Assembly: GCA_029858305.1 (NCBI GenBank)
Contig: JAOUFI010000073.1
Location: 1-11,615, forward strand
DNA length: 11,615 bases
Direction of reading: 5' to 3'
Source: Candidatus Thorarchaeota archaeon
GTDB lineage: Archaea > Asgardarchaeota > Thorarchaeia > Thorarchaeales > Thorarchaeaceae
Below are positions 5,029-11,615 of the stretch, in pieces (the first letter of the stretch is position 1; every line of letters starts with the position of its first letter). The translations under genes were made by a program, and so were the position numbers. The notes under the pieces are model-generated. The model made no database searches, was not told the origin of the DNA, and saw only the letters and a list, made by a program, of their open reading frames with translations.

Positions 5029-6351
5029 TTACTTGAACCTAAGGTGCGCGTAAGCTGGAGTATCTGTTTCAAAGGCATAGTGCACCTTCTGATACTCTTT
5101 GCGGAACTCTCCAACCTCTTTAGCAATCTTCTTGACATCTACACCCTTCATGACCACGCGTGTCATGAATTCAGCAATTGCATCCATCTCTGACTCTTTC
5201 ATTCCTAGTCGTGTCATTTCACTTGTACCAAGTCTGATTCCACCTGGAGTCTTATAGTCGCGACCCCGTTTCTTGTCCCATGGTAGGAGATTTCGATTGA
5301 TGACTATATTAGCATCCTCTAGGTTCTCTTCAACTGTAGCGCCGTCTTTCATTGGTGTTTCAGTTACATCCACAAGAACCACATGGGACTGTGTGAATCC
5401 CTTGTGCTCTGCAATGACCTGCCATCCTCGTTCGTGAAGTGCCTGAGCTAGAGCCTTTGCATTCTTCATGATCTGCTTACTGTATTCAACACCAAATTCC
5501 ATCATCTCAGCAAGCGCCACAGCCAAGCCTGCAACATTGTGCAAGTGGTGATTGCTCAGTAAGCCTGGGAATGAAGCCCGCTTGATGGCATCCGCCCACT
5601 TCTCCTTTGCCAACACCATCGCGTGTTGTGGCCCTGGAAGTGTCTTGTGGGTAGATGTTGTCATCATATCGGCCCCTTCTCTCAAAGGATCCTGGAAGAA
5701 ACCTGATGCAATCAGACCTGAAACATGCGCAGAGTCATAACCAATTGTCATTCCGTATTCGTCAGCAATATCCCTGAACTCCTTTACGGGATGTGGAAAT
5801 GGGAAAACGCTTCCACCAAATAGGAGAAATTTGATCTCATCACCCTTCTCTTGGAGGTCCTTTATCTGTTTCATACTGGCATCGATATCAATATTGAACT
5901 CCTTGTCATCAAATATCCAATTGCGTACCTTGTGTCCTCGTATCTGACCTGCTGTCCCCCCAAGATCCTTTCTTGCATGAGATATATGTCCTCCATGCGC
6001 AATGGACAAAGCCATCATTCTGTCCAGTGGTTCCATAGCTGCAGTGTACATTGCGAGGTTGGCAACAACTCCCGAAATAGGACGTACATCTGCAAATTCA
6101 GCCTTGTATAGCTTCTTTGCAAGATCAATAGTGATTAGTTCTACTTGGTCTATGTACTTACATCCCGCATAGACTCGTTCCCCTGGCCATCCTTCAGCAT
6201 AGCGGTCTCGGAAGTCACAGACTATTGCTGACCTGACAGCTGGTGATGATACATTCTCAGAAGCGATAAGATTAATCGTCTTGCTCATCCAATCATCATG
6301 TTTCTCTATGAGTCCAAATACTTCATCATACAGTTTCTTGTGCTCGCTCAT
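5029..6351 (-). CDS. glyA: serine hydroxymethyltransferase (archaeal type)
   Basis: INLIASEN, YAEG.PG.R.YAGC, HGGHISH, YDSAHVSGLI, PLP-Lys motif STHKTLPGPQ and GIRLGTSE.TR. Start is 6351 or 6366. Confidence 0.97.
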   Translation of the reverse strand: MSEHKKLYDEVFGLIEKHDDWMSKTINLIASENVSSPAVRSAIVCDFRDRYAEGWPGERVYAGCKYIDQVELITIDLAKKLYKAEFADVRPISGVVANLAMYTAAMEPLDRMMALSIAHGGHISHARKDLGGTAGQIRGHKVRNWIFDDKEFNIDIDASMKQIKDLQEKGDEIKFLLFGGSVFPFPHPVKEFRDIADEYGMTIGYDSAHVSGLIASGFFQDPLREGADMMTTSTHKTLPGPQHAMVLAKEKWADAIKRASFPGLLSNHHLHNVAGLAVALAEMMEFGVEYSKQIMKNAKALAQALHERGWQVIAEHKGFTQSHVVLVDVTETPMKDGATVEENLEDANIVINRNLLPWDKKRGRDYKTPGGIRLGTSEMTRLGMKESEMDAIAEFMTRVVMKGVDVKKIAKEVGEFRKEYQKVHYAFETDTPAYAHLRFK

Positions 6352-6513
6352 ACCTAGATACTCCATGTCCTAAAGACGATTCGGGCTAGGTTTAGCTTCG
6401 TTATATGACTTACGACCTGACAAGAGAAACAAATCGCTGTGTTAAGATTTGGCAAACTCGCTTTGAAAGGAATCTACATATTCCATGATTCGCCTTGAAC
6501 ATGATGTGATATT

Positions 6514-6936
6514 ATGGGCAAATCTGGAAATCATAGCATCTTGCTGATCACTGTTTTCATGTTTCTGGTGGCACTGTTGGGGCCTTTTGCATATCATCTA
6601 GACCTGAATCCATTCGGATGGAACTCGTACGAGGCGGTATTGTGGCATTATGTTGAATCCATTTCGAGTTTTCTCTTTTTCAATAACACCGTGAACCTAT
6701 TACCATACTATTTCTTTGGATTTGTATTCATCATTCAGTTGTATAGATACTATCAAGGTAAGGCTGGGAAGACCTCTACTCTGATTTTAGGTCTTTATGC
6801 ACAGATACATCCTCTCTTGCTCTCGCTTCCAGTTCTTCTGCGATTACCATTCACCATAGCCTCCGGTGGCGAGATCTTGTATCCTGTCATCATTCCAATT
6901 TCGATTTTGCTACTAGTAGGAGTTGCTCTGGTCTAA
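6514..6936 (+). CDS. hypothetical 4-TM membrane protein, apparent paralog of 11029-11502
   Basis: 140-aa hydrophobic ORF with motifs VALLGP, F..QLYRYY..ILGL and IIPISILLLVG. Confidence 0.75.
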   Translation: MGKSGNHSILLITVFMFLVALLGPFAYHLDLNPFGWNSYEAVLWHYVESISSFLFFNNTVNLLPYYFFGFVFIIQLYRYYQGKAGKTSTLILGLYAQIHPLLLSLPVLLRLPFTIASGGEILYPVIIPISILLLVGVALV

Positions 6937-7013
6937 CTCAGACCGCCAGCGCATATCACTGAAACTGATTGAATCCTAATTCTGACAAACAAGAACCCTG
7001 CTCTCTCAACACT

Positions 7014-7244
7014 TCAGCGAGTTCTACGGTCTTTTATCATGAACGCCACAGCCATTATTATGAGTGTGACGCCAACTATGAAGAAATAATATCGCAGGCT
7101 ACCCACCCAGGGTACATGAACTGAAACCGGATTAGCGCCTCCAAGTATTACTAACGAGATTCCCAGAACAAGCAGATTGCGCGTTGAAGTAGAGTCCCCT
7201 CTCGTTGAAATAGAATCCCGCTCCACTGTCACCACCTGTGCCAA
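7014..7244 (-). CDS. small 2-TM hypothetical protein (TTG start, possibly truncated)
   Basis: 76-aa ORF with two hydrophobic helices and a basic tail. No ATG start. Confidence 0.45.
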   Translation of the reverse strand: MAQVVTVERDSISTRGDSTSTRNLLVLGISLVILGGANPVSVHVPWVGSLRYYFFIVGVTLIIMAVAFMIKDRRTR

Positions 7245-7357
7245 GTATCTGCTACAGTCTTAATAAATTCAAACATCCGAGAAGAAAAACAGAACTGTTA
7301 TTGTGTCAGGTTCACCAGCTAGCAGTTTGATTTTGATATCAGTAACACCGCAATCTC

Positions 7358-7363
7358 TATAAA
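7358..7363 (+). promoter_or_regulatory. TATA box of the tRNA gene
   Basis: TATAAA about 27 nt upstream of tRNA position 1. Confidence 0.5.
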
Positions 7364-7427
7364 CGCAAAACAGGCAAAGAGCGTTTTGTGGGCCAGTGGC
7401 TAAGCCAGGTATAGCGACAGGCTCTTA

Positions 7428-7458
7428 CTCTCGCTAGCTTTTGTTAGCGAGATGAGAA
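7428..7458 (+). other. tRNA intron 1 (position 37/38)
   Basis: BHB motif: bulges TAC and AAA, central helix CTCT/TGAG (one U-U pair), and 10-bp intron stem TCTCGCTAGC-TTTT-GTTAGCGAGA. Confidence 0.85.
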
Positions 7459-7474
7459 ACTTGTTGGTCGCGGG

Positions 7475-7504
7475 TGGCATGGCCAATCCGACCAAGCCAG
7501 CGAA
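7475..7504 (+). other. tRNA intron 2 (non-canonical, ~53/54)
   Basis: 30-nt insertion between GCGGG and TTCAAAT. Relaxed BHB: CGCG/AGCG helix, bulges GGT and AAT, GGC/GCC stem. Boundary is ambiguous by 1 nt. Confidence 0.75.
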
Positions 7505-7633
7505 TTCAAATCCCGTCTGGCCCGCCATTCGATCTTGATTTTCCCCTCAAGTGAATAGAGGATTGCCATGCGAAGATATCGAGAGTGTACTACTTTTTCT
7601 GGAGTCTAATACTCTCTCGAAGATTAATTCACT

Positions 7634-8020
7634 TCACGATTCATTGATTCCCCGTTCTTTAGCAAGATACGTAAGGAATGCAATCAAGAATGAGATAATC
7701 GTTGAGTAGAGTGTTTCAATAGTCGGTGGAAATCCATAACCTGCGGCAGTTGACAATCCAGCTATTCCAGCGATTATTAAGGCATTAACAATTGCATTTT
7801 GTGCTTTTTTCGGCATCCCAGCTGCTGCGATAGTCATTGCAGGTTTCGATGGCAAGAACCATAGCACAACTATTCCGACCAGGAATATCACAAGGGCAAT
7901 GACAACTCCAATATAGAACTCTAATGCAATCCCAAACAAGTATGTAATGACAATGAAGCCTAGAGTAAGAAGAACAAACAGTATGCTTCCTAGTTGGTTT
8001 TTCATATTCTTTCCCTCCAT
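7634..8020 (-). CDS. cassette 1 cargo: 4-TM hypothetical membrane protein
   Basis: 128-aa hydrophobic ORF wholly inside repeat interval 1. Start may be the second Met. Confidence 0.8.
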   Translation of the reverse strand: MEGKNMKNQLGSILFVLLTLGFIVITYLFGIALEFYIGVVIALVIFLVGIVVLWFLPSKPAMTIAAAGMPKKAQNAIVNALIIAGIAGLSTAAGYGFPPTIETLYSTIISFLIAFLTYLAKERGINES

Positions 8021-8106
8021 GAATACGGTTTCAACATCTATTTGAAACCCAGAATACTATTAGACGATTCTGTATAAGAATAGTTTCAAAACAATAATCA
8101 CACGAC

Positions 8107-8131
8107 ATTCAAATCCCGTCTGGCCCGCCAT
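8107..8131 (+). repeat. tRNA-Lys 3'-end direct repeat, copy 2 (att-like)
   Basis: ATTCAAATCCCGTCTGGCCCGCCAT, 25/25 identical to 7504-7528. Confidence 0.95.
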
Positions 8132-8261
8132 CCTGCTTAAACAATCTTGTTTCAACAATCAGGACATTCTACCAATATTTACTAAAATGACTATATAATT
8201 GATAAGAAAATATTTATATTAAATCGATATCTAATATATAATAAGGAGGTTTTGGATTTCG

Positions 8262-9251
8262 ATGAAGGGACGAAAAAGAGCACAATATATATTCTTGGTA
8301 GTTATTCTTTTATCACCACTAGTTATAATGCCACTATCTGTTCCAGTCTTGTCAAATGTAGTAGTTGTCATGCATGACGATGCCGCAACGTCTGCAGCAG
8401 TCAAGACTATTACTGAGAGCACATCAAATGTAAAGGTCGTACAGTATAAATCTCTTGATTATATATTGACTATTCAAAGAGTATCTGGACAAGTAGCTTG
8501 GGTCTCACATGGCTCAGAAGATGGAATACTCGCGGAGAACAATCTAATCTCTTGGAGAGATTTCAGCCGCCAAATCAAATTGACACCGTGCCGAGATATT
8601 GTTCTTGCCTGCTATTCTAATTGCTTAGAGGATTATGTTTCTCCTGAATCTATAATAGGTGTTGATGGTTCAATAGATGCGGTTCTGGGTGGACTAATCG
8701 CATCATACATACTACAACCTCAAGACGCGATAATACATCAGGTTGAAAAACACGTTAACGATCTCTTATTCGGAAGAGCAGACATAGACCCACTTGGTCT
8801 GTCGCTTACTGAAATAACCTACTGGACTGCTATTTTCTTACTCTCTATCCTAGCGTATTATTCGGGGAATGTACTAGCTGTCACAAATCCGACTTGGATA
8901 CAAATGACGGTTCACTTCCTACAGCAAAATGTGATTACAAACTCACCAGCAATAGTATTGACTTTGACATATCTGGTTCTGGGACAAATCGATATTTGGG
9001 CTGCAGTCTGGCAAATTATTGGTTTTGTTATCTTTGATGTTCCAGCCGCACTCGGGCAGATGCTTTTTGATCCTCTGATAATGACGGATCCTTTATTCAT
9101 CGCCACAATTGGGCTATCAATAACAATGATTGCTATCAGTGTTTTTTGGGGCAAATTCACTTTTGACCTTGCTGCATTGATTATTGGTTCCATGTTCATA
9201 CTTGGTGGAGTTGTTATTGATTTCTATGACAATAATAATTGGGTTGGATAG
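8262..9251 (+). CDS. cassette 2 cargo: membrane protein with putative caspase/CHAT-like His-Cys domain and hydrophobic C-terminus
   Basis: N-terminal signal/TM, VAWVSHG (H83) and DIVLACYS (C117), several C-terminal TM helices. AT-rich upstream region and AGGAGGT SD at 8244-8250. Confidence 0.8.
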   Translation: MKGRKRAQYIFLVVILLSPLVIMPLSVPVLSNVVVVMHDDAATSAAVKTITESTSNVKVVQYKSLDYILTIQRVSGQVAWVSHGSEDGILAENNLISWRDFSRQIKLTPCRDIVLACYSNCLEDYVSPESIIGVDGSIDAVLGGLIASYILQPQDAIIHQVEKHVNDLLFGRADIDPLGLSLTEITYWTAIFLLSILAYYSGNVLAVTNPTWIQMTVHFLQQNVITNSPAIVLTLTYLVLGQIDIWAAVWQIIGFVIFDVPAALGQMLFDPLIMTDPLFIATIGLSITMIAISVFWGKFTFDLAALIIGSMFILGGVVIDFYDNNNWVG

Positions 9252-9343
9252 GAGAAATGAATTAGCAGAAGGATGTCAATATCTCAAGATGATAAAGCAA
9301 AACGCTGAAGTTAATCACGATTTCAAGAAGATTCTATAATAGG

Positions 9344-10066
9344 ATGAGAATTATAATGAACATAAAACGTCATTTTGAACCGGCAATCCATGTATTGAGT
9401 TCAACGCCAGAGAGCAAATCTTTCTTACTTTTCTCATTGGTGATATTTATTTTTCTAAGGCTTCTCCTTCTTTGGGGATATCATAATCTGTTCCACATGA
9501 CATACCTACTAGTCGCCTTTTCCTTCTTTCAAGTAACAATCCTATCCATTTTTGTTATGCAGAAAATCAAAGACGCCTTGACTCCGGAAGAGCATTTCGC
9601 TATGAGGAAATCTGCACTTCTGCTTGGATACATTTGGTTAATTCTATTGTATATCCCAGTAGTTGCAATATGGGTTGTAGACCTCTGGCAAATCCAAATC
9701 GGTGTAGCTTGGCCTATGAGTAACTACACTCCTGATGCAGTTTTACTACTGCTCGTTTTACTCGTGTGCATGCTTCATTTTCCACTAACACTCTACGCTC
9801 TCTATTGGCAGTGGGATTGTTTCACAACCAGAGAAGATGATATGAAACTGGTTTTGAACAAAGGTTTGTTCAAGACGCGAAGCACTACTACATTCTTCAC
9901 ATTAGCATTTGTTTTTGTTTTATTTTTTGGCTTAAAATCTGCAATGGAGAGAGAGTTTCTTTTACCACTGTGGCTGAATCCGTTAACATTGGCTTTATTC
10001 ATCCTTCTCTTGATGATTACATTCACCCTGGGGTTATGGTACAGATATCGAAGGAACCACACCTAA
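9344..10066 (+). CDS. cassette 2 cargo: ~6-TM hypothetical membrane protein
   Basis: 240-aa hydrophobic ORF co-oriented with, and 92 nt downstream of, the 329-aa gene. Confidence 0.8.
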   Translation: MRIIMNIKRHFEPAIHVLSSTPESKSFLLFSLVIFIFLRLLLLWGYHNLFHMTYLLVAFSFFQVTILSIFVMQKIKDALTPEEHFAMRKSALLLGYIWLILLYIPVVAIWVVDLWQIQIGVAWPMSNYTPDAVLLLLVLLVCMLHFPLTLYALYWQWDCFTTREDDMKLVLNKGLFKTRSTTTFFTLAFVFVLFFGLKSAMEREFLLPLWLNPLTLALFILLLMITFTLGLWYRYRRNHT

Positions 10067-10382
10067 AAGAGAGAAAAGACAAATCAACCGCTTCAACTAA
10101 GATGATTCGCTCTTAGGAGCGTTTGAACACTACATAACTGACAAGTGCAATCATGAACTGAAATACCATACAAAATATGAACGAGTATCTTTGAATCCCT
10201 TTTCTAACCTTTTAATCCCAAAAATTTTAGAGAATTGACTTCGTTTCACATTCGAGGTGGGCAATAAAGCTATAAGTCTACATCTCTTGCATTAATTTTT
10301 CATAGTGGCATTTGAAAGATCATCTGAAAATTTCTAAATTGCATGTTCATCCAAGCTCGTTGATTTCCAACTGGCTGCCTAA

Positions 10383-10402
10383 AAATCCCGTCTGGCCCGC
10401 CA
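10383..10402 (+). repeat. tRNA-Lys 3'-end direct repeat, copy 3
   Basis: AAATCCCGTCTGGCCCGCCA, 20/20 identical to 7508-7527. Confidence 0.95.
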
Positions 10403-10520
10403 CTCTTTTGCTCCTCAGAGAGAGCACCTAGACTATTATCAAAAACACCATCTCACTTTAATAGGCGTTTATCTCCACAGATTATACGAGTTATCACTCA
10501 GAAGGGGCATGGTGAAATCT

Positions 10521-10787
10521 ATGTCTGATATTATTGACACATATAGTGAAAATACGAGCACTGGCCCTGCTCCGACGCAAAAGCGATCTGGTGGAGGGAT
10601 CAGTGGATATCTTTCGGAAGTCATGTGTGGCATTGGGCTGATAATCATAGCTCTTTTCATTATGTCACTCACAGGTATAGGCGGTGTGCATCTGGACACC
10701 AGCAATCCTTTGATGGTTGTTTTGGTCTTCGGTGTCGCTATACTATTGATTATCGGCGGATGCTTGTTAAACCGCCGCAAATCCTAG
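10521..10787 (+). CDS. cassette 3 cargo: small 2-TM membrane protein
   Basis: Hydrophilic N-terminus, two TM helices and an RRKS tail. GGTGA SD at 10511-10515 favours ATG 10521; the ORF track start is 10509. Confidence 0.7.
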   Translation: MSDIIDTYSENTSTGPAPTQKRSGGGISGYLSEVMCGIGLIIIALFIMSLTGIGGVHLDTSNPLMVVLVFGVAILLIIGGCLLNRRKS

Positions 10788-10947
10788 TTTCTGCTCTCTA
10801 TCATATCTCTCAAGACAGCATCACGATTTCGCGCGACTCAAGTATGAGGACTGCAATACAAGTTCCAGTAAGACGGAAAACTGTCAATAAAAACCAAGAC
10901 AAACAGTTATAGTGTAAAATCTGAATGATCTTCTAGATAGAATCACA

Positions 10948-10973
10948 AGAATCTTCATGGTACTGAAGATTCT
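10948..10973. repeat. perfect 10-6-10 inverted repeat
   Basis: AGAATCTTCA-TGGTAC-TGAAGATTCT. Confidence 0.6.
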
Positions 10974-10996
10974 GTGCAAGACGAATTGGTTGTATG

Positions 10997-11020
10997 TTCA
11001 AATCCCGTCTGGCCCGCCAT
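10997..11020 (+). repeat. tRNA-Lys 3'-end direct repeat, copy 4
   Basis: TTCAAATCCCGTCTGGCCCGCCAT, 24/24 identical to 7505-7528. Confidence 0.95.
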
Positions 11021-11028
11021 GCATTTTA

Positions 11029-11502
11029 CTACTTTGCTTTCTTAATTAGATGAATTCCCGCAAGTAACAGAATAGGCGTCGGAATAAATAGTCGAACATC
11101 GACGACTGGTGCTGCGATTGAGAAAAGGACTCCAGGTGGAGTGCCAAAGATTGAGTTTACAGTCATCATTACAAAGCAAATAACAATCAAAATTCCTGCA
11201 AGTAGCAATCCAAGGATGCGAACAAGATTCAGGTCAGCATTATCTCTATTGAATCTAATTAGAGTGAAAACAAACAACAATCTTGGTATTAACACAAAGA
11301 TGTTTGGAAGGAGAATGATCAACCAGTCGTTGAGATACCAATCCGAATATGAAATCATCCATGTTGATCCAGTGATTCCAACAAAAAGATGATTTGAATC
11401 ATACCATTCTAGATATTGAAACCCTATGACTGCAGGAGAAACTAATGCTAATACCAATAATAGAAGGAGGTTCCTATTTCCTATAGAAGAATTGAGTTTC
11501 AC
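11029..11502 (-). CDS. cassette 4 cargo: 4-TM membrane protein, apparent paralog of 6514-6936
   Basis: 157-aa ORF with GTG start and motifs LALVSP, F.FTLIRF..ILGL and FIPTPILLLAG. Confidence 0.78.
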   Translation of the reverse strand: MKLNSSIGNRNLLLLLVLALVSPAVIGFQYLEWYDSNHLFVGITGSTWMISYSDWYLNDWLIILLPNIFVLIPRLLFVFTLIRFNRDNADLNLVRILGLLLAGILIVICFVMMTVNSIFGTPPGVLFSIAAPVVDVRLFIPTPILLLAGIHLIKKAK

Positions 11503-11602
11503 TTTCCCTAGCTCACATCACGCAAATAGCAAAAACCAGACTCTTTTGATTTATGCGTTTATTCATTACTAAAAATATGTACTAAATCCATCTACTTTGA
11601 TA

Positions 11603-11615
11603 AAATCCCGTCTGG
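11603..11615 (+). repeat. tRNA-Lys 3'-end direct repeat, copy 5 (truncated by window end)
   Basis: AAATCCCGTCTGG, 13/13 identical to 7508-7520 up to the last base of the window. Confidence 0.85.

Follow-up and report, generated by a model that had tools for sequence, protein, structure and literature searches.

The 11,615-nt stretch of DNA analysed here (hereafter the window) is the entire contig C91 of a 3.04-Mb, 205-contig genome that is 88.9% complete. It carries a tRNA-Lys gene followed by a series of small gene cassettes, which are bounded by short copies of the 3′ part of that tRNA. The array is real, reproducible and widespread in Thorarchaeia. We think it probable that it consists of integrase-less modules with a single attachment (att) site each, whose insertion and shuffling depend on site-specific recombination by an enzyme acting in trans. 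The interpretation given with the initial annotation is supported in part: each of its proposed checks that was run came out in its favour, and the locus is integron-like in behaviour, but it is no integron. The SHMT of the window is 78–97% identical to the SHMT of metagenome-assembled genomes (MAGs) titled Thorarchaeota, which places the host in the class Thorarchaeia of the Asgard archaea.

The core of the repeat, AAATCCCGTCTGGCCCGCCA (20 nt), is found on the + strand without mismatch at four places, starting at 7508, 8111, 10383 and 11000, and the final 13 nt of the window (11603–11615) are the first 13 nt of the core, cut by the contig end. The chance expectation for AAATCCCGTCTGGCCCGCCA is 0.01 matches, and four copies were obtained in none of 200 shuffles. 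In three of the copies identity runs to 23–25 nt, (A)TTCAAATCCCGTCTGGCCCGCCA(T). The initial annotation, made from the letters of the window, had reported these copies and had placed the first one in a tRNA, and both statements hold. The Rfam tRNA model RF00005 matches 7390–7524 with 32.6 bits (gathering score 29) over model positions 1–71, with two insertions. When two inserts were removed by script, one of 31 nt (~7428–7458, position 37/38) and one of 30 nt (7476–7505, in the T-loop), ARAGORN called a tRNA-Lys(ctt). In this analysis 3168 splice combinations were tried, giving 287 tRNA calls, of which 77 were tRNA-Lys(ctt). As the spliced sequence is called tRNA-Lys(ctt), the repeat corresponds to the 3′ exon of the tRNA, from the T-loop to the encoded CCA. 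On the unspliced window ARAGORN reported no tRNA; this blank was discarded as an argument against a tRNA, because the gene has two introns. The one other Rfam match in the window, to a snoRNA at 7986–8096, was attributed to chance (27.9 bits for a gathering score of 101). The tRNA and the repeats are laid out as follows, all on the + strand:

7390..7527: tRNA-Lys(CUU) gene, CCA encoded, two introns (RF00005, ARAGORN after splicing, alignment with 18 orthologues)
~7428–7458: intron 1 of tRNA-Lys, 31 nt, position 37/38
7476–7505: intron 2 of tRNA-Lys, 30 nt, T-loop 54/55
7506–7527: 3′ exon of tRNA-Lys, the anchor copy of the repeat
7505..7527: repeat 1 (TTCAAATCCCGTCTGGCCCGCCA), tRNA T-loop to CCA
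8108..8130: repeat 2, exact copy of 23 nt
10383..10402: repeat 3, exact copy of 20 nt
10997..11019: repeat 4, exact copy of 23 nt
11603..11615: repeat 5, cut by the contig end and completed in contig L116

Direct repeats that copy 20–25 nt of the 3′ part of tRNA-Lys are a feature by which tRNA-targeting integrative elements are recognised. The left flank of repeat 3, GCCTAA, matches the end of the T-loop intron in tRNA-Lys genes of other species.

The tRNA-Lys orthologues of Thorarchaeia carry introns in up to three places, namely the T-loop, the variable region and either of two positions in the anticodon arm. Of 19 aligned genes, 13 have a T-loop intron (54/55 or 56/57), which abuts the left edge of the repeated core. 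tRNA introns have long been thought to interfere with integration, and an intron placed at the edge of the site bears on this idea. Orphan tRNA-Lys-like 5′ parts were also observed near the true tRNA-Lys in the relatives' loci L046, L047, L048, L055, L068, L085 and L106. They extend from the acceptor to the anticodon arm and include an intron, with T-arm and 3′ end absent within 220 nt; they could be remnants of 5′ att sites, genes with very long introns, or split tRNA halves.

Between the repeats lie four cassettes with the following open reading frames (ORFs):

7528..8107: cassette 1, ~0.58 kb
7634–8020, − strand: cassette 1 ORF, 128 aa, 3–4 predicted transmembrane (TM) segments, no Pfam family
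8131..10382: cassette 2, 2.25 kb, two ORFs without a repeat between them
8262–9251, + strand: cassette 2 ORF c2a, 329 aa, with a signal anchor, a domain of ~150 aa and TM segments
9344–10066, + strand: cassette 2 ORF c2b, 240 aa, 6 TM segments
10403..10996: cassette 3, ~0.6 kb
10509–10787, + strand: cassette 3 ORF, 92 aa, 2 TM segments
10469–10780, − strand: competing ORF in cassette 3
11020..11602: cassette 4, 0.58 kb
11029–11502, − strand: cassette 4 ORF (c4), 157 aa, 4 TM segments

Each interval thus contains whole ORFs together with their own flanking non-coding DNA, in the orientations −, + +, + (uncertain) and −, and the DNA upstream of each cassette gene amounts to 60–130 nt or more. 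This ORF map agrees with the earlier description of one or two whole genes per interval, in mixed orientation and with upstream DNA of their own. All five ORFs are predicted multi-pass membrane proteins without a Pfam family, and no inverted repeats pairing the cassette ends were found in the window.

The cassette genes of the window differ in their distribution. Among 87 Thorarchaeia genomes, cassette 1 was found in the present one alone. The c2a family comprises 12 clusters among 5.8 billion proteins, its named members being all Thorarchaeota, and the N-terminal domain of c2a is present in 33 of the 87 genomes. This N-terminal part (150–200 residues) defines a family found across Thorarchaeia in multiple copies, with as many as 11 matches in a genome, C-terminal parts that vary and no Pfam match; at the loci of c2a relatives no tRNA-like ends were found within ~1.5 kb. 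A protein atlas search with c2a and c2b gave no functional lead (scores below 0.9, with TM below 0.5 or short matches only). Matches to cassette 3 in other genera are weak (E 3e-5 to 9e-4) and concern the TM part only. The c4 family occurs in 9 of the 87 genomes and adjoins the tRNA-Lys 3′ core in 5 of these 9, those 5 being spread over three genera; it comprises 13 clusters among the 5.8 billion proteins, the named ones Thorarchaeota except for one cluster labelled Thermoplasmata. A relationship of c4 with a 140-aa membrane-protein gene upstream of the tRNA was considered and not found convincing (E 0.017). Paralogues of this 140-aa gene and of c2a (C126:79-94, 1104-1430; C188:18104-18646) lie beside 3′ fragments or copies of other tRNAs, so that the same small membrane-protein families may recur as cargo at several tRNA sites.

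The array continues beyond the window, as could be seen when the contig was extended, a check proposed with the first description. The metagenome contig L116 is identical to positions 11489–11615 (127/127 nt), completes repeat 5 and adds a repeat 6, with two further features:

L116, between repeats 5 and 6: cassette 5, 1560 nt, encoding a 473-aa NosD/beta-helix protein
L116, after repeat 6: cassette 6 (start only), DinB_2-like gene

Another contig of the same genome, C69, has at its end, read on the minus strand, a cassette for a CPBP/Rce1-like protease, then a variant repeat (2 mismatches), a VIT1-like cassette, one exact repeat and finally a nitronate-monooxygenase (NMO) gene. In relatives CPBP and NMO genes are located downstream of the same SHMT-linked tRNA-Lys, and C69 was therefore taken as the distal end of the array. 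The array in this genome thus has at least eight repeats and at least eight cassettes, with a gap between the contigs.

Misassembly at the repeats had been named as a result that would undo the whole idea. An independent Logan contig, from the probable source run, spans 7458–11007 and includes three repeats. This contig and the occurrence of like arrays in many other assemblies rule out that the array arose as an artefact when this bin was assembled. The evidence from sequencing runs consists here of assembled contigs, whose depths cannot rank copy number; cover by run X3 lies only within cassette 2, run X4 has none on cassettes 1–3, and uncovered parts were counted as no evidence. Two joints in X4, 7529->10998 (short side of 22 letters) and 7420->10374 (26), were left uncounted, as the short side may be the repeat itself. 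A loose end after 10404 in run X1 was rejected as a sign of heterogeneity, being the junction of repeat 6 and cassette 6 seen in L116. Many MAG contigs of Thorarchaeia break at the tRNA-Lys core or within ~200 nt of it (G076:C34:6-25, G009:C31:3-22, G020:C435:1-20 and the end of the window itself); strain-level heterogeneity at the arrays would produce such breaks. For assembly of MAGs this means that contigs often break at these sites, and for annotation, that standard tools miss orphan tRNA 3′ fragments and multi-intron tRNAs.

When the locus was compared across relatives, gain, loss and reordering of cassettes and one empty site were observed. The orthologous locus is recognised by its upstream flank, which holds no cassette:

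5029–6366, − strand: SHMT gene
6514..6936, + strand: 140-aa membrane-protein gene between SHMT and the tRNA, marking the orthologous locus in relatives

In a closed Thorarchaeota genome, the tRNA at this locus is directly followed by NMO, which represents the empty site. In L037 the tRNA is followed by genes for a beta-helix protein, CPBP, a methyltransferase and NMO, and in L043 by a 487-aa gene, CPBP and NMO. L045 carries three genes, the methyltransferase, a 181-aa gene and CPBP, in this order, so that the methyltransferase stands before CPBP in L045 and after it in L037. The order in L115 is tRNA, methyltransferase, GNAT, S41 peptidase and NMO, and that in L117 is S41 peptidase (DNA 97.8% identical to that of L115), a 269-aa gene and GNAT. 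L106 contains five repeats, the last of them followed by a relative of cassette 4. The methyltransferase cassette, of 807–816 nt, was found in 5 contigs, at rank 1 or 2 and with differing neighbours. Its mean pairwise identity is 0.71–0.93 between the repeats and falls to 0.16–0.36 just beyond both of them. Homology of a shared cassette thus ends exactly at the repeats, which are the bounds of the modules, as had been proposed.

Contigs from sequencing runs of other studies add to this evidence. A contig from another study has no difference over 10263–10402 and continues with 77 nt unlike the window directly after the repeat; contigs of that study, this one included, cover parts of cassette 2. 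In a third study, a contig over cassette 4 (10996–11615) has 6 differences in 620 nt, and a contig of the same run over the flank (6582–7360) has 94 differences in 779 nt.

These comparisons also indicate what a module is. The left flank of the downstream repeat moves with its cassette, and the sequence after the CCA changes; the unit therefore consists of the gene or genes and one right-hand site. Moreover, at core positions 8–9 (GT, AC, TC or CC) internal repeats often do not agree with the resident tRNA. These variants are those of tRNA-Lys alleles of other species, and several left flanks read GGTTC or GCCTAA (an intron end), typical of other alleles. The sites have therefore been imported and not duplicated from the local target.

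This last point bears on the readings that do without site-specific recombination, in which the repeats would be target-site duplications of a transposon or casposon, products of a tRNA-primed retro-element, or a misassembly at short repeats. Casposons and some transposons do insert at tRNA 3′ ends, the repeat is a tRNA-Lys 3′ end with its CCA, reminiscent of a primer-binding site, and the contig ends inside a repeat. We nevertheless consider these readings extremely improbable. The cassette ends have no terminal inverted repeats, the genome searches returned neither Cas1 nor a reverse transcriptase, and foreign alleles in internal repeats are unlike a duplication of the local target. The CCA is no mark of an RNA origin, since an encoded CCA follows all 30 tRNA hits of this genome. 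Misassembly is countered by the independent contig across three repeats and by like arrays in 18 of 87 genomes and in metagenome contigs.

According to the explanation that we favour, recombination in trans of single-site modules, each module would carry one gene or a few genes as cargo together with the DNA upstream of them, and would end on the right in a single recombination site, a copy of 20–23 nt of tRNA-Lys from T-loop to CCA. Modules would enter as small circles, by recombination of their own site with that of the tRNA or of a copy in the array. Such an insertion would restore the tRNA and leave a direct repeat, and a module could exit by recombination between neighbouring repeats, resulting in gain, loss and reordering. 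The enzyme would act in trans and would most likely be a tyrosine integrase encoded by an integrative element, plasmid or virus that is missing from the bin or was not assembled in it. A block of identity from the T-loop to the 3′ end is said, in Williams's 2002 scheme of integration sublocations, to be the trace of tyrosine integrases of the T-loop class; for this reason, site-specific recombination of small one-site circles with catalysis in trans is the favoured interpretation. A full-text literature search, with subscription journals and supplements outside its scope, yielded no description of mini-cassette arrays at tRNA genes.

The window contains no recombinase gene, as noted from the start, and an intact one was also sought in the genome and in 16 further array loci. 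Searches of the whole genome with PF00589 (0 matches), PF16795 (SSV-type integrase family), an archaeal XerA model, Cas1 (0 matches) and RVT_1 gave nothing significant, and the best match in a search for serine recombinases (resolvases) had an E value of 0.17. A profile was then built from 13 integrases of relatives. Its sole match in this genome, and the only trace of a recombinase in the bin, is C1:73-471(-), in a truncated gene at C1:73-478(-) of which just the N-terminal part is present. The fragment has 80% DNA identity to a full-length integrase at the end of G016:C120, a contig of core metabolism, and the similarity stops ~98 nt from the start of C1. The break is unlike a tRNA, and a split SSV-type integrase was accordingly rejected. 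The fragment shows that integrase-bearing elements once visited this genome. The same profile gave no hit in the 16 further array loci, and of the 38 families to which 60 cassette ORFs of relatives gave matches, the 25 most frequent include no integrase family. The closed Thorarchaeota chromosome G061 has one weak PF00589 hit (40.9 bits, 304 aa) without a homologue in the present genome, and in this lineage a canonical chromosome resolvase of the XerA type may be lacking or may have diverged strongly.

The fragment on C1 is one of the points in favour of a different history, in which larger integrase-bearing elements (plasmids, viruses or tycheposon-like elements) integrated serially at the tRNA and then lost their integrase and backbone through deletion or imprecise excision, so that one cargo gene and one partial tRNA were left of each, the cassettes being remnants and not mobile units. 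A second point is the polarity of the arrays. In 7 of the 10 distinct multi-copy arrays listed (L043 and L177 counted once), repeats of higher rank have more mismatches to the tRNA's own copy, so that the repeats decay outward from the tRNA. Relatives share the distal cassettes (CPBP, VIT); cassette 1, c2b and cassette 3, which are proximal, matched no compared locus, and the sole match of c2a among the compared loci was a weak paralogue on C188. This polarity fits insertion beside the tRNA, with older units pushed outward, and counts for the favoured explanation too. Accretion is also a known route to partial-tRNA repeats in the islands of Prochlorococcus, as described in the main text of 10.1101/2020.12.28.424599, and passages of PMC8371274 describe tandem integrations in archaea. 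Even so, we regard such an origin as unlikely. The cassettes hold whole genes without fragments of integrase or backbone, both for the five ORFs of the window (Pfam) and for the 25 most frequent of the 38 families from 60 ORFs, and the integrase profile found nothing in the 16 array loci. The same cassette recurs with the same length and bounds at differing ranks and beside differing neighbours, which independent decay would not yield. Finally, of 36 further cassettes, 25 contain just one ORF of at least 50 aa.

Like arrays, all short, occur at six or seven other tRNA genes of this genome, another of the checks suggested beforehand. Among its 30 tRNA hits, all with the encoded CCA, extra same-strand 3′ copies follow tRNAs on C5, C204, C119, C202 and C113, and delimit cassettes of 183–2401 nt with mostly one ORF. 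On the minus strand of C34 (45914–49983), four full-length copies of one tRNA (Rfam 34–55 bits) and one 3′ fragment were observed, ~0.75–1.2 kb apart and with small ORFs between them; the repeat of this array is a whole tRNA. A repeat of ~80 nt is present seven times at C205:128860-137692, with a spacing of ~0.4–1.9 kb. Its minus-strand reading is open and starts with ATG, and it may represent the conserved 5′ end of tandem paralogous genes, not another cassette array.

In the class as a whole, the tRNA-Lys core (with positions 8–9 left free) was matched in 64 of 87 Thorarchaeia genomes. At least two same-strand cores on one contig, 333–4211 nt apart, were found in 18 of the 87 genomes: 11 of this genus, 5 of a second and 2 of a third. 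As many of the core matches sit at contig ends, this number is a lower bound. Cassettes of relatives measure 313–4191 nt. Among their 60 ORFs are 7 GNAT acetyltransferases, 4 SAM methyltransferases, 3 NMO, 3 CPBP proteases, 3 VIT1-like and 2 DinB_2 proteins, besides single peptidases and others; the rest are unnamed, many of them membrane proteins.

Several observations weigh against recombination of single-site modules in trans. No helper was found. Within the genus, a PF00589 match was found in 8 of 28 genomes and in none of the other 20. The integrases of relatives that were examined have no tRNA, T-arm-like end or repeat nearby, and a collection of viral contigs gave 0 matches to the exact or degenerate core. 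With the bin complete to the extent given above, the absence of a recombinase from the genome is not proven. The resident tRNA has an intron in its T-loop, at the left edge of the core; for a crossover within the T-loop, the tRNA copy would be ill suited as a target. The closed chromosome G061 has one candidate extra 3′ copy among 33 tRNA hits, and this near-absence indicates that the process is lineage-restricted or episodic. Lastly, the six proximal copies are all exact, which suggests recent events or homogenisation, and these copies could reflect gene conversion.

Another possibility is a dedicated host system for gene capture. A chromosomal or otherwise unrecognised recombinase of Thorarchaeia would treat the segment from T-loop to CCA as its site for cassettes of every kind, in the way that IntI treats attC. 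Arrays at several tRNAs of one genome and in three genera speak for it, as do the lack of a recognisable recombinase in this genome and the 20 of 28 genomes of the genus without a PF00589 match. The cargo (GNAT, methyltransferase, DinB-like and small membrane proteins) also resembles that of integrons. We hold such a system to be very unlikely. No candidate gene is linked to the arrays, and a closed genome of the class has hardly any of them. The repeat sequence differs from tRNA to tRNA, so that several specificities or an enzyme that reads structure would be required, and no common fold was seen at the repeats: when the 100-nt windows around three of them were folded as DNA on both strands, z ranged from −1.62 to +0.43, with no common hairpin. 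The data are explained equally well by a dedicated host system and by a passive build-up through helper mobile elements in the style of tycheposon islands.

A bolder form of the idea is a Thorarchaeia gene-capture platform that evolved independently of integrons. It would use the tRNA T-loop-to-CCA segment as its site and single-gene minicircles of 0.2–2.4 kb that pass through the population and insert beside the tRNA, with an enzyme that is no recognisable tyrosine or serine recombinase, or is a host function. This appears to us quite unlikely. If true, such a platform would be one of the principal means for Asgard archaea to build up their lineage-specific membrane and accessory genes.

On the preferred reading, recombination in trans of integrase-less single-site modules, the locus suggests a concrete route into the large accessory gene pools of Asgard archaea, whose entry routes are little known. 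Some tRNA genes of Thorarchaeia would be docking points at which tiny, mostly single-gene modules without an integrase are stacked, lost and reshuffled between species. Should the enzyme be new, it would offer a compact recombination system with a site of 20–23 nt.

Among the closest known systems are the tycheposon islands of Prochlorococcus (Hackl et al., 10.1101/2020.12.28.424599). According to the main text of that paper, specific tRNA genes are targeted there, newcomers displace older units outward, partial tRNA copies are found between elements and scattered in the island, and accessory cargo differs between close relatives, all of which resembles the present arrays. Tycheposons are described there as carrying their own tyrosine recombinase (~1 kb), usually a replication module (2–4 kb), and cargo of up to 10 kb or more. 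In contrast, the units found here measure 0.18–4.2 kb, mostly contain a single gene, never include a recombinase and reside in an Asgard host; this comparison applies to the main text of the paper, whose supplementary examples may show denser partial-tRNA arrays.

In archaea, passages of PMC8371274 describe tRNA genes as integration sites, with tandem elements at one locus and loss of the integrase after integration, and tandem integrated mobile elements at archaeal tRNA genes are the topic of PMC6563490. Large elements at tRNA genes of Heimdallarchaeum are described in passages of PMC8813620. As far as these passages go, the archaeal tandem elements are proviruses, plasmids and giant-gene 'aloposons' of many kb (PMC8371274, PMC8813620), unlike the cassettes studied here, and none of the passages describes an array of single-gene units from below 1 kb to 2 kb. 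More generally, tRNA-targeting integrative elements differ by an integrase inside and a backbone of several kb or more with genes for replication, packaging or transfer, whereas the window cassettes are of 0.58–2.25 kb and have neither. Casposons and DNA transposons are marked by terminal inverted repeats, by a Cas1 or transposase gene and by a duplicated sequence identical to the resident site; here neither inverted repeats nor Cas1 were found, and internal repeats show alleles that differ from the resident tRNA.

The cis-mobilizable elements (CIMEs) of streptococci, known from accretion-mobilisation, are integrase-less, are flanked by att sites of an integrase specific for the end of a tRNA or other gene, occur in tandem with a helper integrative and conjugative element (ICE) and are moved in trans. 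They are, like the present cassettes, att-flanked modules without recombination genes. CIMEs are few per site, have a size of several kb and derive from decayed ICEs, whereas here up to eight or more single-gene units are stacked per site, several tRNAs are involved and no helper was found.

The term integron-like, used in the initial annotation, stands for the behaviour of the array and not for its machinery. Passages of PMC9668308 report attC-based integrons in Archaea, enriched in Asgardarchaeota, and describe integrase-less arrays (CALINs) as common. The likeness to integrons, as presented in those passages, lies in small cassettes made of a gene and one site at one end, in content and order that vary, and in a similar range of cargo. 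Of the integron features compared, three of four are lacking, namely an adjacent intI, a folded attC and co-oriented promoterless cassettes, while cassette architecture with variable arrays is present. No intI lies beside the array (PF00589, 0 matches in the genome), the site is a tRNA 3′ segment without an attC-like single-strand fold, the cassettes lie in both orientations and appear, from their upstream DNA, not to be promoterless, and the anchor is a functional tRNA gene in place of attI. In its design the locus unites the use of tRNA ends as att sites, as in integrative elements, with cassettes as economical as those of integrons.

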